From: Methanobacteriota archaeon
Lineage (GTDB): Archaea; Thermoplasmatota; Poseidoniia; Poseidoniales; Poseidoniaceae
Assembly: GCA_002706065.1 (NCBI GenBank)
Contig: PAJM01000020.1
Location: 16,033 to 80,032, forward strand
DNA: 64,000 nt
Reading direction: 5' to 3'
Shown one piece after another: positions 18,558 to 50,561 of the stretch (positions within the stretch are counted from its first letter, which is position 1; each line of letters begins with the position of its first letter). The notes under the pieces are model-generated. The model saw nothing but the letters and a program-made list of their open reading frames with translations, was not told where the DNA came from and did no database searches. A program made the translations under genes and the position numbers.

Positions 18558-18579
18558 CAAATTATTCTTGTTGCAAGAT

Positions 18580-20904
18580 ATGAGAAAAGCACTTGCTCTT
18601 GTCCTCACTAGCCTTTTGATTGCAACAACCCTCCCAACAAGTGTTGCTGCAGATGAACCAGAACCTATTGCTTGGGGTATCGAATACGATTATTCAAACT
18701 TGAACACCGACATCGCTTCGATGATTGGAATTGACTTGCAAGAAGTCTTCCAAGAGGTTATGGCTGCTGGAGATGACTCGGGACTAGATCTTCTCATTGG
18801 AAGCGTAACCAGTGGTTCAACTACCATCGTCTTCGAACAATACGATGGCCCACTGACCACGTTGGATGTCGACGGGACACCAACCGATTTCTCAACCAAG
18901 ATGACAGAACTCACTGTACGTCACGGTCTGTTGGACGATTTTGCTGTCCACTCCGAATGGAGTGATTCATACGGTGGAATCGATCTCACAATTGGCTACG
19001 ATGCTGAGCAACTGTTCAATGCTGATGTCCTTTACACAGAGTACTTCGACTCCGCAATGGGTCTTCATGGAATGGATATGGAAATGGAAATTGAAGCAAT
19101 GATTGAGTACAATGTGGGTGTCACTGGAGAGATTTCTGGCGACGGAGAAACACTGCCATTCGATATTGATTTGACACTCGGCACCTCGTTTGACATCAAC
19201 AACGGACTGCTTGAGGTCCGCATGGATGAAGCATCGTCTATGTACAACGAGATGGCAGACCTCCAACCTGGAGAAAGCCTGCTCTGGTCTTGTGGAGATG
19301 ACCATGACGACCACGATGACCACGGCGACCATGATGACGACGGCAACCATGATGACCATGGCGACCATGATGACCATGATGACCACCATGGAGAGGTTGA
19401 ACTTACGGACCAATGTTCAGAGAGAAACATCCATTACGAAACAGAGACCTCTGTCTTGTTTGAATTAACAGGTATCCCAACAGAAGAGCTCGGTCTTCCT
19501 GCAGGCGACTTCGACTTCACAATTTCTGATACCGTCACCGACATGTACGATGGTGACGTCGAACTTTTCTTCATGGGAGGTGCGATGGAACTGCTCGATG
19601 AACCAACGCAGATGATCACCATCAATGATGGAAGCACCATCGAAGTTCACCAAGCGTATGCATCTCCGACTCCAATCGCCTTCCCTGCTATGTGGGCCAT
19701 GATGTGGGCCAACTCAGTCGTAGGTAGTGGTGATTACCCAGGTATTGTAGACGCTCTTCTCAGTGACGAAAACTTTGAGGAGATTTTTGGTGGTTTGACA
19801 GATGATTTTGGAGAGGATGATGAAGAAGACTACTTCATCTGTGCAAACCTCAATGAAATTCCATACGAGTATGTCGAGGACGGTTACGATGACTGTGGTG
19901 ACAACTCCGATGAAGAGTTCGTTTGCGATGATGGAGATATCATCCCCGGCGGCTGGGTAAATGATGGATGGGAGGATTGCACAAACGGTGAAGATGAAAC
20001 CAGTGATCAAGCAGAATCTGTTTATGTCTATGTTTACATGAACGGTGCAAGTGAATCAGAAATGAACTTTGATTACGAAGTGCAGGGCATGGAATACGAT
20101 GAGAATTACGAGATTTCTTGGACAGTCACCGATGATGAAGGAACCACATCCGATGCAGGTTCCACTGCCGTTACAGATGGATCGTACAGTTCTTACGACA
20201 GTGCTAACGCAGAAATCAATGGGTTTGGCGAGTACTGTGTCGACATCGAGGTCACCCGTTTGAGTGACAGTGAGGTTGTTGGCAACCAACAAGAGTGCGA
20301 CTCGGTTTCACAAGATATGGAGCCGAGTGAGCGACTCGTGACCATTGTCGAAGCACTTGCAGAATCGACATTGGATAACACCATGGAATCCTTTGGACAA
20401 AACCTCGAAAACCGTTTGTCCAACTTTGAGGATGATTATGACGTTGCATACGAGGATGGTATGGTGTACGCATTGTATGATGATTCTACCAACCGATTTG
20501 TTGGTTTCCAGTTGGTTGCTTCCCCCGGTGGCACACAGTGGTACACGCTTATTGGACCAGATAGCTCTGCTTACGGTACACCTTCGCGAGGTCTCTCTGT
20601 GACCTACTTCACTGGTATTGACGCAGTCGAGGAAGCCCAAGAAATCGAGGACCAAACCGATTTGACCGACCTCGTCGATGTAACGCAACACAACACCGAA
20701 GATGTTGAAGCAGTCAACGAAGGTATTGATCCTGCTACGCTCCCCGATCAGCCGATCAGTGAAGGAAACGACGAAGAGGCATCTGAAGAGACCTCCGAGG
20801 AAGATCTATCCAGCTTGCTTCCGTTCCTATCACCAGTAACCACTCTGGCCATGATTGCACTTGCAGGAATGTTTGTATCAATCCGTTCTAAGGACGAAGA
20901 ATGA
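18580..20904 (+). CDS. acidic secreted protein with (Asp/His)n tract and two 2-Cys LDL-receptor-A-like Ca-binding modules; C-terminal TM
   Basis: Start moved to 'MRKALALVLTSLLIATTLPTSVAADE' (signal peptide). HD tract 'DDHDDHDDHGDHDDDGNHDDHGDHDDHDDHH'. Modules 'FICANLNEIPYEYVEDGYDDCGDNSDE' and 'FVCDDGDIIPGGWVNDGWEDCTNGEDE' lie at nt ~19834-19995. C-terminal 'LPFLSPVTTLAMIALAGMFVSIRSK'. Confidence 0.7.
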   Translation: MRKALALVLTSLLIATTLPTSVAADEPEPIAWGIEYDYSNLNTDIASMIGIDLQEVFQEVMAAGDDSGLDLLIGSVTSGSTTIVFEQYDGPLTTLDVDGTPTDFSTKMTELTVRHGLLDDFAVHSEWSDSYGGIDLTIGYDAEQLFNADVLYTEYFDSAMGLHGMDMEMEIEAMIEYNVGVTGEISGDGETLPFDIDLTLGTSFDINNGLLEVRMDEASSMYNEMADLQPGESLLWSCGDDHDDHDDHGDHDDDGNHDDHGDHDDHDDHHGEVELTDQCSERNIHYETETSVLFELTGIPTEELGLPAGDFDFTISDTVTDMYDGDVELFFMGGAMELLDEPTQMITINDGSTIEVHQAYASPTPIAFPAMWAMMWANSVVGSGDYPGIVDALLSDENFEEIFGGLTDDFGEDDEEDYFICANLNEIPYEYVEDGYDDCGDNSDEEFVCDDGDIIPGGWVNDGWEDCTNGEDETSDQAESVYVYVYMNGASESEMNFDYEVQGMEYDENYEISWTVTDDEGTTSDAGSTAVTDGSYSSYDSANAEINGFGEYCVDIEVTRLSDSEVVGNQQECDSVSQDMEPSERLVTIVEALAESTLDNTMESFGQNLENRLSNFEDDYDVAYEDGMVYALYDDSTNRFVGFQLVASPGGTQWYTLIGPDSSAYGTPSRGLSVTYFTGIDAVEEAQEIEDQTDLTDLVDVTQHNTEDVEAVNEGIDPATLPDQPISEGNDEEASEETSEEDLSSLLPFLSPVTTLAMIALAGMFVSIRSKDEE
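19297..19389 (+). repeat. coding GAY/CAY low-complexity tract (31 codons of Asp/His/Gly)
   Basis: gatgaccatgacgaccacgatgaccacggcgaccatgatgac... read directly from the sequence; it is in frame within the 18580 CDS. Confidence 0.85.
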
Positions 20905-33132: not shown

Positions 33133-34533
33133 GTGACGCGTATGCCAATCTACGAACACACTGCAACCTTCCCATTCTCACGCGAAACTGTATGGAACTG
33201 GCATGCCCGACCCGGCGCTGTGCGTCGAATCATGCCTGATTGGGAAGGAATCCGACCTGTTGAGGTGGGCGGCATTAAGGACGGCGCAGTCACATCGTTC
33301 AGAATGTCGATAGGAATTGTCCCTCAGAAGTGGGTTGCAAAACATCACAGTTATATCGAGGGTGAACAATTTTGCGATAACATGGTGAAAGGTCCTTTTG
33401 GTCGTTGGAACCACACGCACAAGTTCATCGAAGGTGGTGATACGGAAATGCAGATTGAAGATCGTATCGATTGGAAACTTCCGTTCCACTTTTTCACCCG
33501 AATCGGTGCCCCAGTTATGGTCATGCCTCGCGTACGACAGATGTTCAAACATCGTTCACGTCGAATCCTCGCAGACCTTAACCGACAACAGATGTTCAAA
33601 GAAGCACCGCGTAAGCGTATTCTCATCAGCGGTTCAACGGGCTTGATTGGAACCCAACTTGGTGCCTTCCTCGAAACGGATGGCCATGATGTTCACCGAT
33701 TGATTCGTCCAACGACACGTCTTCATGCTGACCAAGACCCTACAAAGGTTGTCAAATGGGACGATAGAACCGGTGAACTTCTCGAGGGTTCATTCGAAAA
33801 CTTTGATGTCATCATCCACTTAGCAGGGGCTGGAATTGGCGACAAGCGTTGGAGTAAGAAACGAAAGAAGCTCATTGCTGAGAGTCGCGAAATCCCGACA
33901 CGTCATCTCGCCAATACGTTGGCCAGTTTGGAGCATCCACCTTCGCTGTTCATGTGTTCTTCAGCTGTTGGATTTTACGACAATCGCGGTGACGAGGAAC
34001 TTGATGAAAACAGCAGCATCGGTGACGGATTTCTTGCAACAATCTGCAAGAAATGGGAGGATGCAACCCAACCAGCAACAGATGCTGGAATACGGACGAT
34101 TCGAATGCGAACTGGAATTGTTACGACGGCTGCAGGCGGTATGCTTCAGCAAATTCTCTTACCTGCAAAACTCGGCGCAATGGGCCCGATAGGAGGCGGA
34201 CGTCAGTGGCAATCGTGGATTTCATTGGACGATCAAATCTATGCCATCCATTACCTGATGAATCATGATGATGCGAGTGGCGTGGTCAACCTTACTGCAC
34301 CCAATCCGGTGACACAGAAACAATTTGCAAAGACGCTCGGGAAGGTTTTGCGACGGCCTGCTTTTGCTCCTGCTCCAGGCTTTGTGATGAAGATCCTCTT
34401 TGGAGAGATGGGTAAATCGCTCATTCTTGATGGGCAGAAAGTTCACCCTCAGCGATTGTTAGATTTTGGCTACAAATTTGAGCATGAAACCCTTGAATCA
34501 GCGCTTCGCGACGCTTTGGGTCGGTTCAACTAA
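33133..34533 (+). CDS. SRPBCC domain fused to TIGR01777/YfcH-type atypical SDR (epimerase-like, DUF1731)
   Basis: The N-terminal ~150 aa are START/SRPBCC-like ('WNWHARPGAVRRIMPDW'). 'ILISGSTGLIGTQLGAFL' and 'GGGRQWQSWISLDDQIYAIHYLM' follow. The track start is GTG; an alternative ATG lies at 33142. Confidence 0.75.
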   Translation: MTRMPIYEHTATFPFSRETVWNWHARPGAVRRIMPDWEGIRPVEVGGIKDGAVTSFRMSIGIVPQKWVAKHHSYIEGEQFCDNMVKGPFGRWNHTHKFIEGGDTEMQIEDRIDWKLPFHFFTRIGAPVMVMPRVRQMFKHRSRRILADLNRQQMFKEAPRKRILISGSTGLIGTQLGAFLETDGHDVHRLIRPTTRLHADQDPTKVVKWDDRTGELLEGSFENFDVIIHLAGAGIGDKRWSKKRKKLIAESREIPTRHLANTLASLEHPPSLFMCSSAVGFYDNRGDEELDENSSIGDGFLATICKKWEDATQPATDAGIRTIRMRTGIVTTAAGGMLQQILLPAKLGAMGPIGGGRQWQSWISLDDQIYAIHYLMNHDDASGVVNLTAPNPVTQKQFAKTLGKVLRRPAFAPAPGFVMKILFGEMGKSLILDGQKVHPQRLLDFGYKFEHETLESALRDALGRFN

Positions 34534-34573
34534 TCGTCGCTTTATTCTTAACCAGTATGTGTCATGGACAAAC

Positions 34574-37111
34574 ATGCTCGGGCGTAGCATTGCTATTGGC
34601 ATGTTTGCCCTGATGCTGCTTTCAATGGCCCCAGCAGTGCAAGCCGACGATTCGCAGTCCGCATCCAATCTGCTTACAGACGGCGTTTCATCGAACGGGT
34701 ATGTCTGCGATCCTGATGGGTGCTCTCCGAATGATGGGACCGATTGGTGGCGAATTAATGCATACAAGGGTGACATCGTCAGCATCACCTTCTCGGGTTC
34801 AATGAGTAATGCGGCTTGGTGGTGTCCTGGAGATGGCTGGGAAGGCGACTACTCAATGCACGATGAATCAGGTTCTCAAATCGCAACGATGGGCCGAAGC
34901 GATGACAACCCCTCGGGCACACTTTCCAAAACAATGTCACAAGCAGGCTCTGTCTATGTCAAAATCAAAGCAAAGAACTCATGGTGCAACGATGGATTTG
35001 ACTACACATTGTTGGCAGCCATCGACAAAACCGATCGAGATACCGACGAGGACGGCTTTGTGGATTCTGATGATGATTGCGATCTTATCGTTGGAACATC
35101 AACCAATGACCGTAAGGGTTGCATCGATTCGGATTCAGATGGTTGGTCCGATACCGATTCTGGGTGGGACGTCCAAAACGGAGCGGATGCGTTTGAGTCC
35201 GATTCCACACAATGGCGTGACCGAGACTTTGATGGCTACGGCGATAACATTCTCGGCAACCAGCCAGACCACTGCCCAGATAGTCGAGGATACAGTACTT
35301 CAGATCGATATGGTTGCATCGATTCGGATGGAGATTCCTACTCCGATGCAGACCCAGGAGGATTGAATGGGCTGGAGCCTTGGTTTGCCCATCCAGACGG
35401 TTTGGCAGATGCTTTTCCATTCGAAGTGACCCAATGGCAGGATACCGATGGTGACGGCTACGGTGACAACTGGGATGACCCCATGTGGAATCAATCGCAC
35501 GTTGAGTGGGGAATAGGGCAATGGCTCGATGTGGCCTACCAACCAGATGCTTGTCCATTTATTCTTGGCAATTCATTCGCAGACCGATACGGTTGTCCTG
35601 ATGCCGATGGTGATGCGTGGTCAGACCCTGGCGAAAACTGGTCCTCTGCTGAAGGTGCTGACGCATTCCCGTTTGAGCCAACACAGTGGCGAGACCGAGA
35701 TTTTGATGGGTATGGAGACAATCAATCTGAAGGAGCACGCCTCATCGATGATTTCCCAGACAACCCTACCCAATTCAGAGATACGGATGCGGACGGTTGG
35801 GGCGATAACCAAACCTATGGAGCGACTCAGGTCGATGACTTCCCGATTGTTCCAAGCCAATATCGTGATACTGATGGAGACGGTTATGGAGACAATCTCA
35901 GTGGCTTTGAAGGAGACGTTTGTGTTGATTCAAACGCCGAAGAGGTCGAAAGCGGTTGGATTTCAAGATTTGACCGACTTGGTTGCCGAGACGTTGACAA
36001 AGATGGATACTCTGACCCAAGCGACGATTGGATTTCTCATCCACAAGGATTTGCAGATGCTTTCCCGAATGATCCGTCCCAGTGGTACGATACAGACAAC
36101 GACGGATTCGGCGATAATACGGAATATTTCGATGGTCTTGCTTGGCGCCTTGCCTTTAGGGGTGATGGTTGTCGAACAACGTACGGAATGTCGACCTTTG
36201 ACCGATGGGGTTGTCCAGATTCGGATGAAGACGGCTGGTCTGATCCAACACCGTACTGGCTTGCGAGTCCGGGTGGTACGGGCGATGCATGGCCACAAGA
36301 CCCAACTCAATGGCACGATCGAGACGGTGATGGACGAGGAGACAACCCGTCTGGAACCACGGCTGATGTTTGCCCTTCACAGCCGGGGACCTCTGTAGGG
36401 CCAAGTTCAGGAGGGGATCGTTGGGGCTGTCCTGATACCGACGGTGATGGATGGTCGAATCTCGGAGATGCGTTTATTCATGAACCAACCCAATGGCGTG
36501 ATACTGACGGTGATGGATATGGAGACGAAGCGGATGGGAATGAGGCAGATGCATGTCCAACCATTCGTGGAACATCCATTCTTGATCGACTTGGCTGTCG
36601 AGATACCGACGGTGATGGATGGTCGGATCCGACCGATGATTGGGACGCCCATCCCTATGGTTTGGGTGACGCATTCCCTACCGAAGCGTTGCAGTGGAAA
36701 GACAGCGATGGAGATGGATTTGGAGATGTTCCACTTGGAGCACTTCGTGATGATTGCCCCGAGCTTTTTGGTACCTCACTTCGAGACCTGCAAGGTTGTG
36801 AAGACAACAATGGAGATGGGTGGTCCAATGAATATGGAGAATGGAATGCAGCCCTCGCAATCATGGGAGAAGATCCTGCTGCGTCATGGCTGACGTACCT
36901 CATCGTGGGAATTTCGTTCATTCTTGGGGCTTCACTCGCCCTTGTCGCCAGGATGATGCGTCCGGAAGACGAGAAGATGCTCACAGAGGAACTCTTGGGT
37001 ATGGGTGGCGCAGAAAACATTCCTGCAATTCTGCCTGACCCGAATGTCGTAGCATTGCCTGACTTGGCGATACCTCTTCCACCGCCGCCAGGAGGTGACC
37101 AGGATGCGTAA
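34574..37111 (+). CDS. secreted thrombospondin-type-3-repeat (Ca-binding) protein, type I membrane anchored
   Basis: Start moved to 'MLGRSIAIGMFALMLLSMAPAVQADD' (signal peptide); the track start would overlap the previous gene. About 18 DxDxDGxxD loops alternate between 'QW(R/Y/H)DxDxDG(Y/F)GDN' and 'GCxDxDxDGWSDP' types. TM 'LTYLIVGISFILGASLALVA' is followed by RMMR and a Pro-rich tail. Confidence 0.75.
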   Translation: MLGRSIAIGMFALMLLSMAPAVQADDSQSASNLLTDGVSSNGYVCDPDGCSPNDGTDWWRINAYKGDIVSITFSGSMSNAAWWCPGDGWEGDYSMHDESGSQIATMGRSDDNPSGTLSKTMSQAGSVYVKIKAKNSWCNDGFDYTLLAAIDKTDRDTDEDGFVDSDDDCDLIVGTSTNDRKGCIDSDSDGWSDTDSGWDVQNGADAFESDSTQWRDRDFDGYGDNILGNQPDHCPDSRGYSTSDRYGCIDSDGDSYSDADPGGLNGLEPWFAHPDGLADAFPFEVTQWQDTDGDGYGDNWDDPMWNQSHVEWGIGQWLDVAYQPDACPFILGNSFADRYGCPDADGDAWSDPGENWSSAEGADAFPFEPTQWRDRDFDGYGDNQSEGARLIDDFPDNPTQFRDTDADGWGDNQTYGATQVDDFPIVPSQYRDTDGDGYGDNLSGFEGDVCVDSNAEEVESGWISRFDRLGCRDVDKDGYSDPSDDWISHPQGFADAFPNDPSQWYDTDNDGFGDNTEYFDGLAWRLAFRGDGCRTTYGMSTFDRWGCPDSDEDGWSDPTPYWLASPGGTGDAWPQDPTQWHDRDGDGRGDNPSGTTADVCPSQPGTSVGPSSGGDRWGCPDTDGDGWSNLGDAFIHEPTQWRDTDGDGYGDEADGNEADACPTIRGTSILDRLGCRDTDGDGWSDPTDDWDAHPYGLGDAFPTEALQWKDSDGDGFGDVPLGALRDDCPELFGTSLRDLQGCEDNNGDGWSNEYGEWNAALAIMGEDPAASWLTYLIVGISFILGASLALVARMMRPEDEKMLTEELLGMGGAENIPAILPDPNVVALPDLAIPLPPPPGGDQDA

Positions 37112-38390
37112 GCGAACATTCTTCCTTGCTCTCCTCTTCGTCCTCCCTCTTCTTGGAGCGATGAACGTCAGTGCTGAATCGGATATTGGTTTGGAAGAGG
37201 CTGGAATTACGATGGTTGCTCTTCGAAACGATACGCTCGATCTCAACCAAGATGGTGATGTCGATGCAGTTCGCGTAGTGGTCATCCTCAATTCCACAAT
37301 CGAGTCAACCATTGTTGATGTGCGCTTAATCGCGACACACAATGATCGAGAGGTGGTCGAATCGACGACAATTGAAATCGTTGGACAAACCAATGCAAGT
37401 CTGACCTACGATGCATGGTCGCGAGGCTCCCATGATCTCGTACTCGGATTTTATGACATGAATGGTGCTGAAATTTCATCAATCACGTTGCTGACGTACG
37501 AAATGGTTCCTGCCTTGCAAACACCGATGCTATCGCTTCAATTCATTGGTCAAAACAATCTACAAACCGGTTCAAATTGTGAAATAAACCGTATGTTTGC
37601 AGATGAGACAGGTCCTCGTTACGGGGCGTTGGGTACGCTTACGTTTACCGGCGCACCGTTCATCGTATTGGACAACGCCACCAATATTGATTGTTCAGGT
37701 TGGCCAGCAGGAGAATATTCGCTACGTGAGACCTATCGCAACGAACTTGGACAGACTGCTGAAACATCGTTGAATCTCACCATCGAAAATCGACCTGCTC
37801 CGACCTTCGAGTTGGTTGTCAATGGAGATGGACAAACAACCGATCGGTCCTGCTTAATTGCAATTCAGCCGACCAATCCGAATGAAGACTTTGCGCCATA
37901 CACGAAAGAATGGGATGTCTCGACCACCTCTACGATTACTGAGGGAGCGGTCTACGATTGTTCCAGCCTTCCTGCAGGTGTTCACCTCGTCGTGCTCAAA
38001 GTAACCAATTTGGAGAACATTGCGAGTACGCAAGCGGTCAACATCGTTCGATTACCAGCCGCCGAGTTGTCCGCAGAAGAACAAGAAGCACTCCCAAGTC
38101 AATCCTTTGGCGAAGAAACTGAAACAGAAGCTGTAGGCTGGTACACCATTTCTGTTCTGGGGTTGATCGTTGGCATCGTTGCGTTCGTTCTTTTGGTTCG
38201 AATCCGTGAGGACGACGAACTTCTGACGTTACCGGAACTCGGACCAGCACCACAGATTCTCAACGATGGTTCACCCGATTCTGAAGGATTACCGACGATT
38301 GTTGATGATGAAGGCCAATTGTGGCGTAAGCATCCTGACGGTTCGCTTGACTGGTGGGATACGACCTACAACATTTGGCAACGATGGTGA
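37104..38390 (+). CDS. type I membrane glycoprotein-like protein, SD-coupled to the TSP3-repeat gene
   Basis: GGAGGTGA lies 5 nt upstream of ATG 37104, and there is an 8-nt overlap with the upstream stop. Signal peptide 'FFLALLFVLPLLGAMNVSAES', many N-x-S/T sequons, TM 'WYTISVLGLIVGIVAFVLLV', and a Trp-rich tail 'LWRKHPDGSLDWWDTTYNIWQRW'. Confidence 0.55.
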   Translation: MRKRTFFLALLFVLPLLGAMNVSAESDIGLEEAGITMVALRNDTLDLNQDGDVDAVRVVVILNSTIESTIVDVRLIATHNDREVVESTTIEIVGQTNASLTYDAWSRGSHDLVLGFYDMNGAEISSITLLTYEMVPALQTPMLSLQFIGQNNLQTGSNCEINRMFADETGPRYGALGTLTFTGAPFIVLDNATNIDCSGWPAGEYSLRETYRNELGQTAETSLNLTIENRPAPTFELVVNGDGQTTDRSCLIAIQPTNPNEDFAPYTKEWDVSTTSTITEGAVYDCSSLPAGVHLVVLKVTNLENIASTQAVNIVRLPAAELSAEEQEALPSQSFGEETETEAVGWYTISVLGLIVGIVAFVLLVRIREDDELLTLPELGPAPQILNDGSPDSEGLPTIVDDEGQLWRKHPDGSLDWWDTTYNIWQRW

Positions 38391-39982: not shown

Positions 39983-42900
39983 ATGCGCGGGCGGCGGATG
40001 CTTTTCAAATCGGTTCTCGCAACCGGACTTGTTCTGCTTATGCTGGTCCAATTGATGGCTCCAATTGCCTCTCAATCGATGACCAGTACACCTGTTTTGG
40101 CGGATGAATCGGTCATCGAATACACACTTCCAACCAATCTTGAGCACGGTCATGACCTCGCAGGTCAAACCATCGACATTGAAGGAATGACCGAACTGCT
40201 CGTACGGCCAGATTCCTCCATTGACATGTGGATGAGTGAGGTGCTTGTTTCTGGTACAGCTGGTGAGTTGAGCCCACCGAGTGTTTATGTTGCAGAGAAT
40301 GGCTCAAGTTACGTTTGTTGGATGAATGCGCAAGGTGAGGTTCGAATGGGAACTTACACATCAACAGGAGTCTTCTCCGAATCGATCATCGATACTGTCG
40401 ATACTTCGTTGGGAATCATTGGTTGTTCCGTAGTCGTCGATTCGTCCTATCGTCCGCTGGCGATTTATGGAGATGGAGCAAATTTGTCAATGGCTCGATT
40501 TGCGTTCCAAGGACAGGTCTACTCATCAGATACATGGTTGAAACGAACCATCATCGAGGATTTCTATCCGGATTCAATGGTTGTTCGATTGACCGATACT
40601 GGGAACGAATTTGCTGTAGTTAGGACGACTTCAGGAGAATTGTGGCAGGTCAACAACAGCGGATTACGTTGGGACAGCAGTTTACTTGACAGCGGGCCTG
40701 TGGGACAAGAGGTTGAACTGAAAATGGATGCAAATGGTGTTGCAAACATTGCTTACACACGAACCGGTGAAGCCGTCCGTTTGCAAGTTGATGGAAGTCA
40801 AATCACTGAACAAATACTTGCCCGAGAAGCATCTCTCCATACCGCAATTGGTCTTGATTTGGACATCAACGGACTTGCGCAAGTAGCAACAACATCATTT
40901 GCCGATGATCAAACAGGACTTTCAATCTTCAAGAGTTTGGAAGATCAATCCACAGGTCGCCTCTCCAGTCAAGCAATGAGCACCTACGAGCTCTATCCTG
41001 ATGTAGCAGAAGGTTCCGCTTCCTACGGTGATTTGAATTCTGATGGGTTTGACGATGTTGTCTTCACACAACCCGCAGCCTCAGATAGCGGATTGAACAA
41101 CAACGGGCGAGTAGTAGTGCTTTTCGGAGGCGCTGACGGTCTTGCATCATCGACTCCTGTTGTGCTCAGTGGATCACAAACGGCAGAACGCTACGGTCAA
41201 GGCATTGCAATTGGTGAGTTTTTGTCGAATGGAAACATGCAATTGCTCTTGTCTTCGCCCGGTTATGACAACACGAGCAGAGTGGATGAATTCAACCACG
41301 GTCTTCTATCATTGTACGAATGGAATCAAACTCAGTTTGATTTGATCTGGAGCATGATTGGGAACAACGAAGAGATGCTGGGTGAGGATGTTTCACTCAT
41401 CGATGATATGAACGGAGATGGATTCGATGACCTCGTTGCCTTACAAGGCAACTGGACCGATGGTGCATTGAACGGGCGCCTTTCTGTATTCCAAGGTTCG
41501 ACCGACGGTTTGACTTGGTCACACAACATCACTGCTTCGACCTCTGGACCGTTCTATGGTCGGGCAATGTCAAGTGGGGGCGATCTCAACGGAGATGGAT
41601 ATGGAGACTTTGTTGTCTCAAACTCTGGTGATGAAGACTCACCTGTCGGTTTCTCTGCAATCGAACTGTTCTATGGATCATCGAACGGTTTCTCTTTGAC
41701 ACCCGATCAAAGCATTCAACGGCTTGGACAAGGGACTCTACTTGGAAACGTTGTTGAGATCGTTGATGACATCAACAACGATGGTATGGACGAACTTCTG
41801 GTACAGGAATTCTCAGCACCAAATTCTCCACTGTACAGTGGTACAGTCCATCTTTTCATGGGCAATACGTCTGAAAACTTCAGTGAGACTCCAGATTGGA
41901 CGAGTCAAGGGACTGGAAATCAACGATTCGGATGGATGTTTGCGACTGCTGGAGACGTGAACGATGATGGCTACATGGATACATTCATTGGTTCTGGAAT
42001 GGCATACACTCCTTCAGGCCAAATCGATCTATACCTCGGTTCACAGAACGGATTCGTTCCAGCGGTTGAAACCATTCGCACAGGTGCACCTACTGTTCAC
42101 CTCGGTCTCGTCACTGTTGGTGGATTCGATTCGAATGCTGATGGAGCAATCGAGTTTGTCTATTCAACCAGAAACGCCACTCGAGGTACGTCCTACGGCA
42201 TTGACATGGTCACGGTAAGCAAGCAAGATTTCGATACGAGTCAATTTACCTTCGATGGGAAAATGTCGGGATTGAAACTGACGACATCGGATCGTGGTGA
42301 GACTGCAATGATGTTCTCACTCAACGCCTCTGCATCACATTCACTTGTTCATCTTGAACATGTCGAGGACGGTTCACCAGGTGGTTCATGGGTCGCCGAT
42401 ACCTTGGCTACATCACCCTCTCCATTCCAATTCCAGTTCGACGTGACACCTTCTGGTCAACCCGAGCTGGTTGTCTTGGAAGAGGGAACAGGTTACGTTC
42501 ACCATTCCACAACCTCTTGGACTTCGCTGCATCAGGAGATTCGTACGTTCAATGACTTTGGAACATATCCCGCCTCAGCAATCGATTCGAATGGTGATTT
42601 ACACATCATCTATTCGCACAACACGATTGAGAAGTTGTACTATTCGACCGAGGATTCGAGTGGCTCAGGCGGATGGGATACCAATGAAATCCTGTCCAAT
42701 TCAAATCTGACATCATCCCCAACCGTTTGGTTCGAAGGTGCAGACATGCACGTGCTCTATCGCGATGCGAATCTCGACAAGATTGAACATCTGATCAAAT
42801 CCGGAAGCAGTTGGTCTACGGCCACTGAGCTGGATTCAGGGCTTGCTGTCGGAAAGGAACACGTTGCGCTCCAACTTTCGAACGGTACGACCTTGGTTGC

Positions 42901-45900
42901 AACAACCGTCAACAACTCTGGTATTCATGAATTGCAGATTGTGGACATTGACCACGATGTTTCAACACCATTGAGGAACCTCAGTGATGGAACAGCTGAA
43001 TTGTCGATGTGCATGGATTCAAGCAATACAATTGTTCTGCTCTCTCTTGATTCCAATGGTATTCTCGTGACACACGAACGAAACGCTACAACGGAATTGT
43101 GGACGAACGTTTCAATGCAGCAACTTGGTCTAACCAACGGTCAGACCGATGGTTATGATTTGGCCTGTACTCAGCACGGCTCGTCGCTGATCTTTGCTGT
43201 GCAAGCATCGGTGAATGCGTTGCATGAGCGCAACAGTACGGGCGCGTGGTCATCGTTTGGTGGCCATCCGACGTCCTCTGAAGGCGGTGCTTGGCAACTT
43301 GTTTCCAACGGTCCAGGAGTCATACTGATGACGACAACACCTGGGACTGACACACTCAACATCAATACGATGCATCTCGACGGTCGGTCCGAAGACCGCT
43401 CAGTCTGGTCGTCGCATGAAATGAAGAATGTCTATACAAACGCCAATTTCTCGGCAAATCTCGACTCCAACGGAACGATTGTCATCGGATATTTTGATTC
43501 TCAAGACTTGGATGTTGAAATGCTTCGACTCTACTCAGACTCCGATCGCGATCTCATCTTCGATCGCCTCGATGCCATGCCGAACGTTGGAGAGCAATGG
43601 GCCGACACCGACTTGGACGGGTTCGGCGATAATCCGACAGGACCATTATCGGACGATTGCCCCGCAGATTCAGGAATTTCTTACTTCTTCATTCAAGGTT
43701 GTGACGATTATGAACACGATGGTTTTGCAGACACAATCGATGCCTGCGATACCTATGACGGACGTTCGGTGTTCGATCGATATGGCTGTCCAGATTTCGA
43801 TGAGGATGGCTGGTCGAACAACGATGGTAATTGGATTCATGGAGACCGATTCCAGCAAAACTGGAAGCAGTCGAAAGACAGTGATGGCGACGGAGTCGGT
43901 GACAACTATGGTGTTGATTGCTGCAATGCAATGTTTGGCTTATCAGGGGCCTATGAGTACAGTCCTGGTGACAAATTCCCCAACAATCCACGTCAGTTCA
44001 AGGATTTCGATGATGACGGATACGGTGACAATGAATCGGATTTGTTGACCGGAGATTTTTGTCCATGGGATTATGGAACCTCATATCGTGACCGAAACGG
44101 TTGTCTTGACTCAGATGGTGATGGTGCGAGCGACCCTTCCAGCATTGGTGGCATCAATTGGGGTGTTCAGCAAGGGGCTGACATGTGGCCGAATGACCCC
44201 ACGCAATGGGCTGATACGGACGGTGACGGGTACGGTGACAACGGAACCATTGGTGCAACAAACCCAGATTTCTTCCCCTACAACATTGCAGCAGCTGATG
44301 ACAACGACAGCGATGGTTATCCTGATCGCTGGACTTCATCGTACAACGGTAGCAATGGCCAGGGTCTCATTCTCGATGGATGTCCTAGCGTGTACGGAAC
44401 CTCAATCAATCCGTTACCGGGTTGCCCCGATAGCGATGGTGATGGATGGGCCAATACGGACGATGACTTCCCACTCGACCCAACACAATTCCTCGACAAT
44501 GATGGTGATGGGTTTGGCGATAATGCTGATGGTAACAACCCTGATGAATGTCCGTTCCAGTTCGGTGTTGAAAATGGAACGGACGGCAACGGTTGCCCGC
44601 TCGTGAATACCGACGATACCGACGGCGATGGCGTTTACGATGAAGTGGATGTGTGTCCAAACTCCCCTTCCTTTGCAACTGTGGATGCAGATGGTTGTGC
44701 TGATTCACAACTTGACGACGATGCCGATGGAGTTTCCAACGCCGAAGATGCGTGTCCCGAAACACAAGCCTCAGCAGAGGTCGATTCGAGTGGGTGCAGC
44801 GATGAACAACTCGTCCAAGACAGCGATGGTGATGGCGTCGTCGACATTGACGACCTTTGCCCAGAATCATCCTTGACTGTCGATGCAAACGGCTGTGATG
44901 AAAACCAACGCGACTCCGATGGTGATGGCGTTGTGGACGGTGCACCTGATTTGTGTCCGAACACCGAGGCAGGCTTCCCCGTTGATTCAACTGGTTGTGT
45001 TGATGAGAGTGCTCTTGACCAAGATCTCGATGGCGATGGTTATCTTGGTGAGTATACCTTTGATATCGACAGTGAAACGGGATTGAGGATCAATGAGGCT
45101 GGAGATGCCTTCCCTCTCGATGGCACGCAATGGTACGATCAAGACGGTGACGGCTTCGGTGATAACCCGATGGGTAACAATGCTGACTTTTGCCCCGAGG
45201 AAACTGGGACATCCTACCTTGATGCCATAGAAATTGGGTGCGAAGATGACGGTGACGGTTGGGCTGATAATTGGGGTAGGGATAAATTCCCTGGCGATGC
45301 CACACAATGGAATGATTCAGATGGAGATGGCTACGGAGACAATTGGGGTGATGAGGCTTGGAATGAATCAAGAGATTCTACATGGCCAGGAGATTTCGTC
45401 GTGGGTGCGTCAACTCCCGATAAGTGTCCAAACTCACCTACAACCAACGTTGACGATGAAGGTTGCTCGAAGAGCGAGCGAGATACGGACGAAGACGGTG
45501 TCAACGACTTATTGGACAACTGTCCAGAACAACCGAAGGGTCCTGATGGATTCGATGATGGTTGTCCATTACCGAAATCCGAAACCGATGATGAAGGAAC
45601 TATGATTCTGGGTATGACCCTTCCTGTATTTGGTGGCGTACTTGCAGGTGGAATCGTAGCATTGCTGGTGCTAGTAATCGTGATTGGCCGACTCCGAAAT
45701 CGAGGCTATGACTTTGATGATGACGATGACGATGAGGATTTCTTTGATGATGATGACGATGAAGATGACTTCTTCTCCTCATTCCAGAGCAAACCGATGC
45801 CTTCGCGTTCGACTCCATTACCGTCGGCTGGACCTTCAGGTGGCCCTCCGGGTGGTTCACCGTCGCGTGGACCATCAGGTCCGAAACGTGGCCCTCCTGG

Positions 45901-46219
45901 CCGTGGTCCACCAGGTGGGTCAATGCCGCCTCGTTCTAGTCCTGCCTCACCGAGGGCGCCTGTTGAACAATCTGTCAAGTCTGACGACGCTGATCAACCA
46001 TCTCCACAAAAGAAGGTCCGTCGTGCACGGATTGAAGTCGACCTTTCACTGTTTGAAGACTGGCAAAACGAAGATCGAGATGCTGCAGTTGACTGGGTCG
46101 TAGGTGAACTTTCCGATGGTGGACAAGAACGTACACTGCTCATGCAGTTGCAAGGAACTGGTTGGTCTGCCCAGCAATCAAGAGCGATTTATGACATGGC
46201 TCGTAACCAACAATCGTAG
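39983..46219 (+). CDS. 2,078-aa type I membrane protein: N-terminal beta-rich region, 7 FG-GAP (integrin-alpha-like) repeats, second propeller-like region, ~19 thrombospondin type-3 repeats, TM, 176-aa cytoplasmic tail
   Basis: Signal peptide 'LFKSVLATGLVLLMLVQLMAPIAS'. FG-GAP loops: 'YGDLNSDGFDDVV', 'IDDMNGDGFDDLV', 'GGDLNGDGYGDFVV', 'VDDINNDGMDELLV', 'AGDVNDDGYMDTFI' and 'GGFDSNADGAIEFV' (aa ~340-740, nt ~41000-42200). TSP3 loops such as 'DSDGDGVVDIDDLCP' span aa ~1185-1865 (nt ~43535-45577). TM 'GGVLAGGIVALLVLVIVIG' (nt ~45605-45688) is followed by RLRNR. Confidence 0.8.
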   Translation: MRGRRMLFKSVLATGLVLLMLVQLMAPIASQSMTSTPVLADESVIEYTLPTNLEHGHDLAGQTIDIEGMTELLVRPDSSIDMWMSEVLVSGTAGELSPPSVYVAENGSSYVCWMNAQGEVRMGTYTSTGVFSESIIDTVDTSLGIIGCSVVVDSSYRPLAIYGDGANLSMARFAFQGQVYSSDTWLKRTIIEDFYPDSMVVRLTDTGNEFAVVRTTSGELWQVNNSGLRWDSSLLDSGPVGQEVELKMDANGVANIAYTRTGEAVRLQVDGSQITEQILAREASLHTAIGLDLDINGLAQVATTSFADDQTGLSIFKSLEDQSTGRLSSQAMSTYELYPDVAEGSASYGDLNSDGFDDVVFTQPAASDSGLNNNGRVVVLFGGADGLASSTPVVLSGSQTAERYGQGIAIGEFLSNGNMQLLLSSPGYDNTSRVDEFNHGLLSLYEWNQTQFDLIWSMIGNNEEMLGEDVSLIDDMNGDGFDDLVALQGNWTDGALNGRLSVFQGSTDGLTWSHNITASTSGPFYGRAMSSGGDLNGDGYGDFVVSNSGDEDSPVGFSAIELFYGSSNGFSLTPDQSIQRLGQGTLLGNVVEIVDDINNDGMDELLVQEFSAPNSPLYSGTVHLFMGNTSENFSETPDWTSQGTGNQRFGWMFATAGDVNDDGYMDTFIGSGMAYTPSGQIDLYLGSQNGFVPAVETIRTGAPTVHLGLVTVGGFDSNADGAIEFVYSTRNATRGTSYGIDMVTVSKQDFDTSQFTFDGKMSGLKLTTSDRGETAMMFSLNASASHSLVHLEHVEDGSPGGSWVADTLATSPSPFQFQFDVTPSGQPELVVLEEGTGYVHHSTTSWTSLHQEIRTFNDFGTYPASAIDSNGDLHIIYSHNTIEKLYYSTEDSSGSGGWDTNEILSNSNLTSSPTVWFEGADMHVLYRDANLDKIEHLIKSGSSWSTATELDSGLAVGKEHVALQLSNGTTLVATTVNNSGIHELQIVDIDHDVSTPLRNLSDGTAELSMCMDSSNTIVLLSLDSNGILVTHERNATTELWTNVSMQQLGLTNGQTDGYDLACTQHGSSLIFAVQASVNALHERNSTGAWSSFGGHPTSSEGGAWQLVSNGPGVILMTTTPGTDTLNINTMHLDGRSEDRSVWSSHEMKNVYTNANFSANLDSNGTIVIGYFDSQDLDVEMLRLYSDSDRDLIFDRLDAMPNVGEQWADTDLDGFGDNPTGPLSDDCPADSGISYFFIQGCDDYEHDGFADTIDACDTYDGRSVFDRYGCPDFDEDGWSNNDGNWIHGDRFQQNWKQSKDSDGDGVGDNYGVDCCNAMFGLSGAYEYSPGDKFPNNPRQFKDFDDDGYGDNESDLLTGDFCPWDYGTSYRDRNGCLDSDGDGASDPSSIGGINWGVQQGADMWPNDPTQWADTDGDGYGDNGTIGATNPDFFPYNIAAADDNDSDGYPDRWTSSYNGSNGQGLILDGCPSVYGTSINPLPGCPDSDGDGWANTDDDFPLDPTQFLDNDGDGFGDNADGNNPDECPFQFGVENGTDGNGCPLVNTDDTDGDGVYDEVDVCPNSPSFATVDADGCADSQLDDDADGVSNAEDACPETQASAEVDSSGCSDEQLVQDSDGDGVVDIDDLCPESSLTVDANGCDENQRDSDGDGVVDGAPDLCPNTEAGFPVDSTGCVDESALDQDLDGDGYLGEYTFDIDSETGLRINEAGDAFPLDGTQWYDQDGDGFGDNPMGNNADFCPEETGTSYLDAIEIGCEDDGDGWADNWGRDKFPGDATQWNDSDGDGYGDNWGDEAWNESRDSTWPGDFVVGASTPDKCPNSPTTNVDDEGCSKSERDTDEDGVNDLLDNCPEQPKGPDGFDDGCPLPKSETDDEGTMILGMTLPVFGGVLAGGIVALLVLVIVIGRLRNRGYDFDDDDDDEDFFDDDDDEDDFFSSFQSKPMPSRSTPLPSAGPSGGPPGGSPSRGPSGPKRGPPGRGPPGGSMPPRSSPASPRAPVEQSVKSDDADQPSPQKKVRRARIEVDLSLFEDWQNEDRDAAVDWVVGELSDGGQERTLLMQLQGTGWSAQQSRAIYDMARNQQS

Positions 46220-46275
46220 AGCACAACAGTAACCTCAAAAATAACACTCAATTGGCGAAGATAGGAGGGAGAAAA

Positions 46276-47841
46276 ATGTCGGATGGCGTACCAGAAGGAG
46301 CAACACTTCCCGAGGGTATAGAGGTCGATGACGCAGCGGCATATTTTGGTGCAGTTGACTCTTCTGACGTCCTTCAACAAATGATGTCAATGGAGCCGAA
46401 ACTGGCGCTTTCAAAAGCCCTTGAACACCTTGCCGACATCATCCTACGACCTGGTGAGTTCGACTTCGAAGCAGCAAGCGAACGATTGCAGTGCGAAGGT
46501 GGAGAGATTTACTTCCTCATCTTTGGACATCTAAACCTGATGGCTCTGCCCGATCCATTGTTGCAATTTGCTGGTCAATCAGACTCGACTGGGGCAGCTA
46601 ACACTGCGCATCCACTCGCGACTGCCGAAGTCATACAAGCGCTAACTCCGCTGTTTGACCCAATGCAATTTCTGAAAATCTTAGCCATTGCATATGCAAC
46701 CGGAGGCAACACGGAGGTCGATCAATATCTTCAGTCAATTGAGGATGTAATGTCAAATCCTTCGGGCAATCTTGAGAAGATGCAGTCGATGGCTGAGGAA
46801 CTCAACAGTTCGCTTGATGTAGCTGGTCATGCTCTTCCGATGCCCCTATTTGCAAGTGAACAAGCCCAACCTGCGGAAATCGAGATGGGCGCGGTTATCG
46901 AGCGAAAAGAACCCGAACCGACTCCTGTACCCGAGCCTGTTCTCCAATCTCCTACGCCTGAACCAGAGGTTGAGTCAGTACCGCTACCAACCGAATCAGT
47001 ACCATTACCAACCGAATCAGCTTCAATTCCAAACGAATCCGTCCCTCTCCCTGCCACAGACTCTGTCCCACTCCCAAATCAAGGTGAACCCATCGAGGAA
47101 GTCGGATTCAAGAATGAAGTCGAAGTTGATCACGCGGCTCAAGATGCATTCGCTGGCGCTTTCGGCTCTCAATTGGTTCCAGAACCTCAAATTGCTCCAG
47201 AACCAGTCGAAGATGTTGAGGAAGCAATTCCTGAGCCAACCCCCGAACCACCCGAACAGATTCAGGAACCAGTCGAAGAAACGGTTCCCGAACCCATACC
47301 ACCGACTGTGGACCTACCTGAAGAAGAGTGGGTAAGTGATGCCGAACGGTTCATTGCAGCCGATGTTGATGATTCAGGTAGCCTCTCTGTCGAAGAATTA
47401 GCAGTTGCTGCGAATGTATCCATGGAAGAAGCCGAAGAACTTCACAATGCTGCGGATACTGATGGCGACGGTGAAGTCTCGCTCTCAGAATTTGTTTCCT
47501 CAGAAGCTGCACAAAAGATGTCCACATTGCCGCGTCCTGTCGCTCCTATTCGCAAACCAATACAATCACAACCACCACCTCAACAACCCCAGCAGCCGCG
47601 TCAACAACCAACTTCTCCTGGTGTTGCAGCCCCACAGATGGGTTGGCAGCAACAACCACAACAACAGCCAATACAGCAGCAACCAGTGATGCGACAACAG
47701 CCAATGCCACAACAACCAACAATGAACATCCAGCCAACAATCCGTTCCGGTATTCACTGTCGTGGATGTGGAATTGGCCTCGACCCAAATTGGCGTTACT
47801 GTCCAGTGTGCGGAAACATGAACATGAGCGCACATCGCTAA
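46276..47841 (+). CDS. cytoplasmic EF-hand pair / Pro-Glu-rich / Gln-Pro-rich protein with C-terminal zinc ribbon
   Basis: GGAGGG (46264-46269) lies 6 nt upstream of ATG 46276, and there is no signal peptide. EF loops 'DVDDSGSLSVEE' and 'DTDGDGEVSLSE'. 'QSQPPPQQPQQPRQQP...QQQPQQQPIQQQPVMRQQPMPQQP'. CxxC-x10-CxxC 'CRGCGIGLDPNWRYCPVCG'. Confidence 0.6.
   Translation: MSDGVPEGATLPEGIEVDDAAAYFGAVDSSDVLQQMMSMEPKLALSKALEHLADIILRPGEFDFEAASERLQCEGGEIYFLIFGHLNLMALPDPLLQFAGQSDSTGAANTAHPLATAEVIQALTPLFDPMQFLKILAIAYATGGNTEVDQYLQSIEDVMSNPSGNLEKMQSMAEELNSSLDVAGHALPMPLFASEQAQPAEIEMGAVIERKEPEPTPVPEPVLQSPTPEPEVESVPLPTESVPLPTESASIPNESVPLPATDSVPLPNQGEPIEEVGFKNEVEVDHAAQDAFAGAFGSQLVPEPQIAPEPVEDVEEAIPEPTPEPPEQIQEPVEETVPEPIPPTVDLPEEEWVSDAERFIAADVDDSGSLSVEELAVAANVSMEEAEELHNAADTDGDGEVSLSEFVSSEAAQKMSTLPRPVAPIRKPIQSQPPPQQPQQPRQQPTSPGVAAPQMGWQQQPQQQPIQQQPVMRQQPMPQQPTMNIQPTIRSGIHCRGCGIGLDPNWRYCPVCGNMNMSAHR
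46972..47079 (+). repeat. five degenerate tandem 21-bp (one 24-bp) coding repeats (E/D-S-V-P-L-P-x)
   Basis: gagtcagtaccgctaccaacc / gaatcagtaccattaccaacc / gaatcagcttcaattccaaac / gaatccgtccctctccctgccaca / gactctgtcccactcccaaat. Confidence 0.75.
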
Positions 47842-49064: not shown

Positions 49065-50561
49065 ATGAGCGACAAAGCAGCATTCCTGAATCGGGTTCAA
49101 GACATTCATCGAATCGGTAGCATACAAGGACATTTGGGATGGGACCAAGAAACACTGATGCCAGAAAAAGGAGCACAATCTCGCGGGGAGATTATGGCTT
49201 GGCTTGCTGCGCTCTCTCACGAGAAAGTCGTTGATCCTGCAATGGGTGAACTTCTCGAACGTCTTGAATCGAGAAACGACCTTGACGAGAGTGAACATGC
49301 GAACGTACGTGAGTTTCGCAAACGTTATGACAAAGCAACCAAGCTCTCAGCAGAGTTCGTCTCGACCTTTGCACAAGCCCGCAGTGAAGCGTTGGTTGCG
49401 TGGCAGAATGCAAGGAAGGATGCTGATTTTACAGCATTCTTGCCACACCTGCAAAGACTCGTTGAATTAACACGAAAGAAAATCGAAGCTTACGGATACG
49501 ATAAAACTCCATACGATGCTCTTCTTGACGAATACGAATCAGGTATGACTGTGGATGATTACGATCCATTGTTTGAAGGATTACGAGAGCGACTCGTCCC
49601 CCTACTCAAGAATATACTCGAGGCAAAAAAGTCGAATCCTGACCCAACTCTCCCTGAAGGGTTGAGATTCCCAGTCGCAATGCAAGAAGCGTTCTGTACC
49701 AAGGTAAGCCAACGCATGGGCTTCGACTTTGCAGCAGGTCGAATGGATGCATCAACTCACCCCTTCTCAGCAGGCATATGGCCTGGAGATACCCGGTTTA
49801 CAACACGTTATGACGAACTCGATCCGTTCTCTTGTCTCTATGCAGTAATGCACGAGACAGGACATGCTCTCTACGAACAAGGTCTTGATGAGAATCACCG
49901 ATACACCCCACGAGGTGATGCAGTTTCGCTTGGCGTGCATGAATCACAATCACGGTTGTGGGAGAATCAAATCGGACGCACACCTGAGTTTTGGAACGTC
50001 GTGATGGACGAATTCAAGGAATCGTTCCCAGAAGCACCTTTGTGGGATTCTTCGACTCTCAACCGGATTGCAAATTCCGTTGAACCCGGTTTCATTCGTG
50101 TCGAAGCGGATGAAGTGACGTACAATCTTCATGTCATGCTTCGTTACGAGATTGAAAAGAAAATCTTCAATGAAAATTATCCACTTGAACAATTGCCAGA
50201 ACTGTGGAATTCCATGATTTCTGACTGGTTTGGTTTGAATGTCCCGTCGGACGATTTGGGTTGTTTACAAGACATCCATTGGTCCATGGCAGCTTTCGGC
50301 TACTTCCCAACATATACGCTTGGAAATTTGTACGCTGCTCAGTTATTGGAAGCAATGAGTAAGGATCTGGGTTCGATACAGGATTCGATTTCGTCAGGAG
50401 ATTGGTCGACCATGCTGAGTTGGCTTCGTGAACGAGTACACAAGCGAGGTAGTGCATTACTCCCATCCGATCTCATTGAAGAAGCGACAGGCTCGCCTCC
50501 ATCAAGTGAACCGTTTCTTCGTTATGTCGAGGAAAAGTACGGAGCGATTTACTCACTCTGA
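49065..50561 (+). CDS. carboxypeptidase Taq-type metallopeptidase (family M32)
   Basis: All M32 hallmarks are present: 'HETGHALYEQG' (HExxH), 'HESQSRLWEN', 'IRVEADEVTYNLH', 'LQDIHWS' and 'GYFPTYTLGN'. Confidence 0.9.
   Translation: MSDKAAFLNRVQDIHRIGSIQGHLGWDQETLMPEKGAQSRGEIMAWLAALSHEKVVDPAMGELLERLESRNDLDESEHANVREFRKRYDKATKLSAEFVSTFAQARSEALVAWQNARKDADFTAFLPHLQRLVELTRKKIEAYGYDKTPYDALLDEYESGMTVDDYDPLFEGLRERLVPLLKNILEAKKSNPDPTLPEGLRFPVAMQEAFCTKVSQRMGFDFAAGRMDASTHPFSAGIWPGDTRFTTRYDELDPFSCLYAVMHETGHALYEQGLDENHRYTPRGDAVSLGVHESQSRLWENQIGRTPEFWNVVMDEFKESFPEAPLWDSSTLNRIANSVEPGFIRVEADEVTYNLHVMLRYEIEKKIFNENYPLEQLPELWNSMISDWFGLNVPSDDLGCLQDIHWSMAAFGYFPTYTLGNLYAAQLLEAMSKDLGSIQDSISSGDWSTMLSWLRERVHKRGSALLPSDLIEEATGSPPSSEPFLRYVEEKYGAIYSL

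Follow-up and report, generated by a model that had tools for sequence, protein, structure and literature searches.

Does the giant surface protein of a marine archaeon have a partner on the inner side of the membrane, and is that partner encoded by the adjacent gene? This question was raised by a 64,000-nucleotide (nt) stretch of DNA from a member of the Poseidoniaceae (GenBank assembly GCA_002706065.1, contig PAJM01000020.1, positions 16,033 to 80,032), here referred to as the window. It contains the gene of a giant membrane protein and, directly downstream on the same strand, the gene of a soluble protein with a pair of EF-hands and a zinc-ribbon-like motif, which we named EFZn. A preliminary description of this DNA had suggested that EFZn is a Ca-sensing and probably cotranscribed adaptor or signaling partner of the cytoplasmic tail of the giant protein. 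Judged by sequence comparisons, the two genes are a real, previously undescribed, and nearly universal conserved gene pair of Poseidoniales and their relatives.

39983..46219, + strand: gene of the giant type I membrane protein, 2078 amino acids (aa), from open reading frame (ORF) and translation
46217-46219, + strand: TAG stop codon of the giant ORF
46276..47841, + strand: EFZn gene, encoding a 521-aa soluble protein, from ORF and translation

The Poseidoniales, or marine group II, are uncultured and reportedly rank first in abundance among the planktonic archaea of the surface ocean (PMC6461757). Rinke et al. found thrombospondin genes to be widespread in Poseidoniales and named them as adhesion candidates (PMC6461757), and Méheust et al. 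reported Poseidoniales-specific families with calcium-binding domains (PMC9258230). Our full-text literature search retrieved only general remarks of this kind on Poseidoniales thrombospondin genes and Ca-binding families and no description of the pair; it likewise found no description of an archaeal transmembrane adhesion-to-cytoplasm link. The locus constitutes a concrete and nearly universal candidate for a function in the attachment of marine group II to particles or algae and in communication between envelope and cytoplasm, and the pair carries two domains that are absent from Pfam, NCBIfam, and the PDB.

Conservation of the gene pair across Poseidoniales

Hidden Markov models (HMMs) were built for the C-terminal domain of the giant protein's tail (the tail domain) and for the N-terminal domain of EFZn (the N-domain) and applied to 80 species-level genome loci and 80 metagenome loci. 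In 153 of the 157 testable loci, the sequence encoding the tail domain lay upstream of the N-domain gene on the same strand and ended less than 250 nt from it, and these loci spanned both Poseidoniales families as well as divergent lineages in which the two proteins are only 29-40% identical to those of the window. The giant gene was single-copy and syntenic in essentially every Poseidoniales locus examined, and an orthologue of its product was present in every locus with sufficient flank, except in a low-GC lineage (loci L135, L140, L154, and L156; the L135-type lineage). The gene order Lnb_N (+), thiamin pyrophosphokinase (TPK, −), giant (+), EFZn (+), M29-like peptidase (−), and M32 carboxypeptidase (+) was kept throughout the Poseidoniales loci. 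Genes on the opposite strand bracket the pair on both sides, and any shared transcript would therefore be limited to the giant and EFZn genes.

Close homologues of EFZn numbered more than 500, all of them from Poseidoniales of both families, and were either unnamed or annotated as "hypothetical" or "EF-hand domain-containing"; an exhaustive profile search yielded 432 representatives at an E value of ≤0.001. The features of the tail and of EFZn described below are conserved in hundreds of homologues and, on this comparative evidence, are not due to chance. One homologue, P0231, carried the label MinC (JGI), which we rejected because Pfam detected only EF-hand and zinc-ribbon models in it. In three further entries (P0369, P0341, and P0414), the giant tail was fused to the downstream N terminus or was read out of frame; these look like frameshift or assembly artifacts and not like real fusions.

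The giant protein has a modular cytoplasmic tail with a conserved helical domain at its end

The tail behind the transmembrane (TM) segment of the giant protein comprises 172 residues. The preliminary description had called it modular, with a duplicated acidic-aromatic block and a small helical domain at its end, and all of these segments were located in the translation.

45599..45700, + strand: C-terminal TM segment, aa 1873-1906 (Kyte-Doolittle maximum of 2.87 at aa 1883)
45710..45775, + strand: duplicated acidic/aromatic block DFDDDDDDEDFF-DDDDDEDDFF, with DFDDDDDDEDFFDDDDDEDDFF corresponding to aa 1910-1931 (from translation)
45830..45931, + strand: Pro/Gly/Ser/Arg-rich repeat, aa 1950-1983, disordered and of variable length
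46010..46216, + strand: basic stretch KKVRRARIEVD and three-helix bundle, the most conserved part of the giant protein
46043-46210, + strand: C-terminal tail segment, aa 2021-2076 (sequence match)

Directly after the TM segment follows a basic stretch, RLRNRG, and then, in this order, the acidic/aromatic block, the variable Pro/Gly/Arg repeat, the second basic stretch, and the three-helix bundle. In the AlphaFold2 (AF2) model, which was based on a 28-sequence alignment, the last ~60 aa formed a three-helix bundle with a predicted local distance difference test (pLDDT) score of 92-95 and helices at tail residues 124-142, 147-156, and 161-175, while the first ~110 residues, including the Pro/Gly repeat, were disordered (pLDDT of ~50). 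The end region was 51-90% identical among orthologues, compared with 36-82% for the ectodomain, and its residues F, L-Q, G-W, Q-S, and I were invariant in 23 diverse sequences. That the tail domain is better conserved than the ectodomain implies that it has a conserved function in the cytoplasm. The divergent lineages retained the complete plan of TM segment, acidic/aromatic block, Pro/Gly/Arg repeats, basic stretch, and three-helix domain, and Asp/Glu runs broken by F, W, or Y were found in all lineages examined and are kept even in the short tail of the L135-type protein.

The Pro/Gly stretch had been compared with polyproline ligand motifs. The stretch itself is present, but homologues gain and lose entire repeat units of it, and it therefore looks like a flexible spacer and not like a set of conserved ligand motifs.

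Searches with the three-helix domain returned nothing from Pfam, NCBIfam, or the PDB profiles, and Foldseek retrieved no significant structural neighbor. Two assignments were considered and rejected: DUF6724 scored 20.5 bits, which is under its cut-off, and spanned only the TM and acidic region, and a helix-turn-helix (HTH) interpretation of GWSAxQSRAI within the tail domain was dropped as Foldseek retrieved no HTH structure.

EFZn combines a family-specific helical domain with scaffold-like linkers, EF-hands, and a zinc-ribbon-like motif

46276..46890, + strand: N-terminal all-helical domain, aa ~1-205, the family-defining part
46969..47079, + strand: repeated SVPLP motifs in the Pro/Glu-rich linker; P236, P238, V264, L266, and P267 are invariant or nearly so
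47143..47163, + strand: DAFAGAF (FxxxF) island in the disordered linker; A291, F292, G294, A295, and F296 are invariant in 42 sequences
47326..47535, + strand: EF-hand pair, aa 351-420, with loops at 47362-47397 and 47455-47490
47527..47559, + strand: LPRPVAPIRKP basic/proline motif; L418, P419, P421, P424, R426, and P428 are invariant
47560..47742, + strand: Gln/Pro-rich disordered linker (pLDDT of ~40)
47743..47838, + strand: C-terminal zinc-ribbon-like segment, with CxxC-x10-CxxC at 47758-47814

No 19-residue window of EFZn reached a hydrophobicity of 1.6, and the scan thus bore out the earlier statement that the protein carries no signal peptide, revealing neither a TM nor a signal-like segment. 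The start codon at position 46276 is backed by the conservation of the N terminus. An in-frame TTG at 46252, 24 nt upstream, would extend the protein to 529 aa and is chosen by some gene callers; homologues that use it begin with M-AKIGG, and several close relatives have a TTG codon at the position that aligns with the EFZn ATG of the window.

The N-domain was modeled by AF2 (42-sequence alignment) as nine helices, with confident prediction of aa ~30-200 (pLDDT of ~90), and retained 16 invariant columns over 26 sequences with identities down to 33%. Profile searches against Pfam, NCBIfam, and the PDB returned no match to it, and a Foldseek search of the PDB with the full EFZn model yielded EF-hand matches only and none for the N-domain. 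A TAL effector match in the PDB profile search (E value of 1e-4) was discarded, as it consisted of 16 summed repeat matches that are each insignificant and reflects a chance helix-GG-helix resemblance.

The linkers have the biased composition that had been noted before. Residues 206-350 contain 23% Pro and 20% Glu and are disordered, and residues 421-489 contain 33% Gln and 26% Pro, with disorder predicted by AF2 for residues 423-489. Three conserved islands stand out in the linkers of the family, namely, the repeated SVPLP (pLDDT of <50), DAFAGAF, and LPRPVAPVRKP, and motifs related to the last one were also found in divergent members. Conserved islands within disordered linkers form a pattern that would be expected of a scaffold with short docking motifs. 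An aromatic-xxx-aromatic motif was present in 130 of 139 complete homologues encoded downstream of a tail domain and in none of the four L135-type proteins; its loss in that lineage is a single evolutionary event, and the association is therefore a lead and not a test. The best, although nonsignificant, structural neighbor of the tail domain was the N-terminal domain of PEX14 (Foldseek E value of ~7, probability of 0.15), which binds WxxxF/Y ligands, and EFZn carries the invariant FxxxF island; this resemblance is not a match and likewise serves only as a lead.

The two canonical 12-residue EF-hand loops of the preliminary description were recovered as DVDDSGSLSVEE (aa 363-374) and DTDGDGEVSLSE (aa 394-405). 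Both fit the pattern of D at position 1, D/N/S at position 3, D/S/N at position 5, G at position 6, and E at position 12, and both are flanked by helices in the AF2 model (355-362/372-378 and 383-393/403-407; pLDDT of ~85 for the pair). Pfam scores were above the cut-offs for EF-hand_7 (PF13499; 34.1 versus 30 bits), EF-hand_5 (31.7 versus 25.9 bits), and EF-hand_1 (25.8 versus 25.4 bits), and profile matches to calmodulin and calcineurin B had E values of 1e-8 to 1e-10. The region is, by sequence and model, a predicted Ca2+-binding EF-hand pair with canonical loops. Its best Foldseek matches were EF-hand pairs, among them calmodulin lobes, with root mean square deviations (rmsd) of 1.3-1.4 Å. 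In contrast to calmodulin-like proteins, which have four hands, EFZn has one pair that accounts for ~13% of a 521-aa protein and is dispensable in the family.

The terminal CxxC-x10-CxxC was located as well. Its cysteines (C495-x2-C498-x10-C509-x2-C512) were invariant in 42 diverse homologues, all four were kept in the most divergent members, and short strands were modeled between the two CxxC knuckles (pLDDT of ~75). The Pfam zinc-ribbon models PF13240 and PF12773 (DZR) nevertheless scored only 16.6 bits on EFZn, compared with cut-offs of 25 and 27.3 bits, and no more than 21 bits on its homologues. The C terminus is therefore described as a zinc-ribbon-like motif and not as a scored member of a family.

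Evidence for and against a functional link

Pairwise divergences were compared across 66 nonredundant loci. With the divergence of the M29 and M32 peptidases controlled for, the tail domain and the N-domain showed correlated divergence (partial Mantel r = 0.28, p = 0.001), whereas the correlations of the tail domain with M29 (r = 0.01) and M32 (r = 0.10) after controls were not significant. In the divergent lineages L081-L107, both domains diverged jointly: the N-domain HMM score fell from ~330 to ~155 and that of the tail domain from ~130 to ~30, and the neighboring M29 protein stayed 56-62% identical.

We tentatively propose that the giant protein and EFZn are functional partners and that EFZn operates where the giant protein faces the cytoplasm, a reading that we regard as a definite possibility short of being probable. 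EFZn would act as a scaffold that docks on the terminal helical domain of the tail or on its charged blocks, and the docked protein would connect the giant protein with further components of the cytoplasm. In family members with EF-hands, this connection would be modulated by Ca2+ but would not depend on it. Such a link is plausible because the giant protein is most conserved in its cytoplasmic end domain and EFZn is scaffold-like and codiverging; the domain at the end of the tail needs a ligand, and EFZn is the sole soluble protein of the two-gene unit. If the proteins do bind each other, they would constitute a transmembrane adhesion-to-cytoplasm link in archaea.

Several observations weigh against a partnership. 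That the two genes stay adjacent and cooriented across relatives, a check suggested in the preliminary description, held true, but adjacency was not specific to the pair. The entire six-gene block is equally collinear, with M29 following EFZn in 112 of 112 loci and TPK preceding the giant gene in 83 of 88, and since the neighbors are equally fixed, adjacency by itself provides little evidence. In the L135-type lineage the pair is broken: the EFZn gene persists beside TPK and M29, and the HMM detected no tail domain within 4-10 kb upstream of it. The EFZn-family gene there has no EF-hands and lies directly after the divergently oriented kinase gene, and the local thrombospondin-type protein (841 aa) has only a short acidic tail (…EGSDDEEIKEVDFFE). 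Furthermore, the N-domain still correlated with both M29 and M32 after controls; the codivergence signal is therefore modest and no proof of contact.

Calcium sensing, in particular, did not hold as a general property. At least one recognizable EF loop was present in every complete protein encoded in the 80 species-level Poseidoniales loci, and the EF-hand pair occurred in some divergent relatives, but it was absent from several divergent lineages, whose full-length members consist of the N-domain, a long low-complexity linker, and the C-terminal ribbon. These three parts therefore represent the core of the family, of which Ca sensing is not a feature. We saw no correlation between the presence of EF-hands and features of the tail.

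The same facts could be explained if the two genes were functionally unrelated neighbors in a collinear core-genome block and if EFZn, expressed from its own promoter, had another cytoplasmic role, such as scaffolding or the binding of nucleic acids or proteins via its ribbon. We consider this conceivable, albeit somewhat doubtful. It would account for apparently unrelated adjoining genes whose synteny equals or exceeds that of the pair, for the conserved promoter-like box in the spacer (see below), and for the persistence of the EFZn gene in the L135-type lineage without a tail domain upstream, and it agrees with the profile-profile comparison, which found no homology between the tail and EFZn. 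It does not account for a tail divergence that tracks the N-domain specifically and not M29 or M32, for the joint divergence of both domains in L081-L107, or for the strong conservation of a tail end that needs a cytoplasmic ligand and has EFZn as the only soluble protein of the unit. Even if the proteins do not bind, the locus would provide two new conserved domain families and an example of a promoter inside a short same-strand spacer that resembles an operon junction.

A conserved promoter-like box precedes the EFZn gene

46220..46275, + strand: spacer of 56 nt, under purifying selection
46233..46244, + strand: CCTCAAAAATAA, TATA-like box and candidate EFZn promoter, nearly invariant in the clade of the window
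46251..46257, + strand: ATTGGCG, a second nearly invariant block identified by conservation
46264..46269, + strand: GGAGGG Shine-Dalgarno (SD)-like element, 6 nt before the ATG at 46276

The 56-nt spacer and its GGAGGG element lie where the preliminary description had placed them. Among 19 related species, the mean pairwise identity of the spacer was 78.5%, compared with 44-46% at the flanking fourfold degenerate sites, and the near-invariant blocks were AACCTCAAAAA, ATTGGCG, and AGGAG. Of 153 spacers, 107 had a box of the form C[TC][TC]AA[AG]A[ATC] or CTTAAAT that started 40-47 nt before the ATG, and boxes of the same type (e.g., CCTCAAGAAC and GGGCTTAAATGGGG) were found in spacers that otherwise could not be aligned. 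In L135, CCTCAATAAGG is located 36 nt before the ATG, compared with 38 nt in the window; as the upstream gene of L135 is divergent, the EFZn-family gene there must have its own promoter. The spacer box also resembles those of the first genes of the window, in which a TATA-like box is centered ~27 nt before a leaderless ATG, a distance that implies leaderless mRNAs. It scored only 2.8 bits with a crude position weight matrix (PWM) derived from the 40 upstream regions of the window, which speaks against a promoter; this PWM is too weak to judge the box, and the case for a promoter therefore rests on conservation and position. A scan for sigma-70 promoters and intrinsic terminators was uninformative for an archaeon, and a search for RNA elements in the spacer of the window returned no Rfam match.

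The simplest reading of these patterns is that the EFZn gene has a dedicated promoter, with a transcript start that would lie ~10-12 nt before the ATG. The SD-like element would then be situated at the extreme 5′ end of a short leader, and the position of ATTGGCG would fit a promoter-proximal element. In 67 of 78 species-level loci, the 20 nt preceding the start codon contained a G-rich SD-like run (at 8-19 nt, mostly 11-14 nt), and internal genes of the window use similar elements.

The preliminary description had taken the SD element as a sign of probable cotranscription and had named a separate promoter in the spacer beforehand as refuting its proposal. A conserved candidate for such a promoter is present at 46233-44 and is retained in L135, and because the box keeps its distance where the gene stands alone, cotranscription is not needed. 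The terminator that was also looked for did not appear: the window spacer contained neither a T5 run nor a hairpin (folding z = +1.1, no better than shuffles), T5 runs occurred in only 4 of 153 spacers, and the spacer length had a median of 72 nt. As an oligo-T terminator is missing from the spacer, transcription of the giant gene may read through into EFZn.

It is unlikely, in our view, that the pair forms a true operon, in which a bicistronic mRNA and SD-led translation would yield EFZn as a Ca2+-sensing adaptor obligatorily paired with the adhesin tail. The shared strand, the short spacer that is nearly devoid of terminator signals, the widespread SD-like element, and the canonical EF-hand loops are all consistent with such an arrangement. 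It is opposed by the conserved TATA-like box ~37 nt before the ATG, which is retained where the gene stands alone, by the spacers of divergent lineages, which measure 100-200 nt and contain T-rich runs and promoter-like boxes, and by the EF-hands, whose loss or lack in several lineages rules out that Ca sensing is obligatory. The least supported parts of the earlier reading are obligate Ca sensing and obligate cotranscription.

The ectodomain of the giant protein and comparison with known systems

In the giant protein, aa 6-33 were hydrophobic and signal-like by a Kyte-Doolittle scan. Pfam detected FG-GAP_3 (38.2 bits, cut-off of 26.9) and FG-GAP (24.1 bits, cut-off of 22.1), both above the cut-offs, and PF02412 (TSP_3) at 23.7 bits, slightly under its cut-off of 25. 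Many Asp-rich DxDxDGxxDxxD units of the thrombospondin type 3 kind are visible in the translation, which also contains 27 N-x-S/T sequons, compared with 18.8 ± 3.9 in shuffled sequences. These features suggest that the giant protein is probably a glycosylated, Ca-binding surface protein.

The integrin alpha subunit, which functions in animal cell adhesion, has FG-GAP repeats, Ca-binding sites, one TM helix, and a short tail with the motif GFFKR; it pairs with a beta subunit, and binders of the tails include the EF-hand protein CIB1 and talin. The giant protein resembles it in its FG-GAP/Ca-type ectodomain, single TM segment, and tail with a proposed EF-hand partner. It differs in having no beta subunit and no GFFKR motif, none being visible in the tail sequence, and in its tail of ~170 aa with a folded three-helix domain. 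EFZn differs from CIB1 as well, as its single EF-hand pair is flanked by an unrelated helical domain on one side and a zinc ribbon on the other. Homology does not extend beyond generic domains, and integrin alpha with CIB1 and talin is the closest functional analogy but an analogy only.

Carried further, the analogy would suggest outside-in adhesion or envelope signaling, in which the integrin-alpha-like giant protein docks EFZn via the three-helix bundle, perhaps at the FxxxF island, and EF-hands, motifs, and ribbon recruit partners in a Ca2+-modulated manner. We regard this extended scenario as improbable; if it were true, the pair would represent an archaeal counterpart of integrin-adaptor coupling made up of unrelated domains.

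Myxococcus MtsC, TraB, and proteins with PA1041-type anchors share Asp-rich DxDxDG repeats with the giant protein and are, like it, surface proteins implicated in cell-cell contact. The giant protein scored 32-38 bits with the NCBIfam models of these types, whose cut-offs are 250-700 bits, and scores so far under the cut-offs mean that only the repeat type is shared with the bacterial proteins. Unlike the giant protein, the bacterial TSP3 proteins are anchored by MYXO-CTERM or OmpA and have neither a cytoplasmic tail nor a partner gene.

Archaeal S-layer glycoproteins resemble the giant protein in their signal peptide, very large sequon-rich ectodomain, and C-terminal TM segment, but they show no sequence similarity to it and have at most a few cytoplasmic residues, in contrast to the modular 172-aa tail. 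The giant protein may be a core envelope protein instead of an accessory adhesin. That it is the main, S-layer-like envelope protein, with EFZn helping in assembly or anchoring from the inside, appears unlikely to us: its single-copy, syntenic gene in essentially every Poseidoniales locus, signal-like N terminus, C-terminal TM segment, and number of sequons fit that role, but Pfam and NCBIfam revealed no homology to known S-layer proteins, the sequon enrichment is only ~2 standard deviations, and published work treats thrombospondin-type genes as adhesion genes (PMC6461757).

Other features of the locus

The stop codons of EFZn and the convergent M29-like gene overlap (47838-47841); this junction, kept in 112 of 112 loci, leaves no room for an intergenic terminator. 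The 486-aa M29-like ORF (−) also shares 234 nt with the beginning of the M32 carboxypeptidase gene (+) (49065-49298). Its Pfam match covers only residues 276-383, and distant orthologues align from residues ~110-160 and do not overlap M32. The ORF is probably overextended at its 5′ end, where its apparent conservation would be borrowed from M32.

A signal-like N terminus, a C-terminal TM segment, and a short tail also occur in at least four other large proteins of the window (6166-9225, 13816-18525, 18535-20904, and 34466-37111). The last of them has DxDxDG repeats, and none of the four has a long tail or a three-helix domain. The ORF at 37095-38390 (+) encodes a TM-anchored protein that ends in the conserved cytoplasmic motif GLPT..D.EG.LWR.HPDG..DWW, which is also found in a 457-aa protein of the L135 locus (L135:7860-9233) and has no Pfam match.

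The boxes of the first genes, such as CCTTAAATAGG, CCTTCAAATGG, CTTTATAAGC, and GTTTAGAACG, are located at 1859-1946 and upstream of the genes at 6166, 13816, 26315 (−), 31089, and 39983. The one between 1858 and 1947 could serve both of the divergent genes that flank it.

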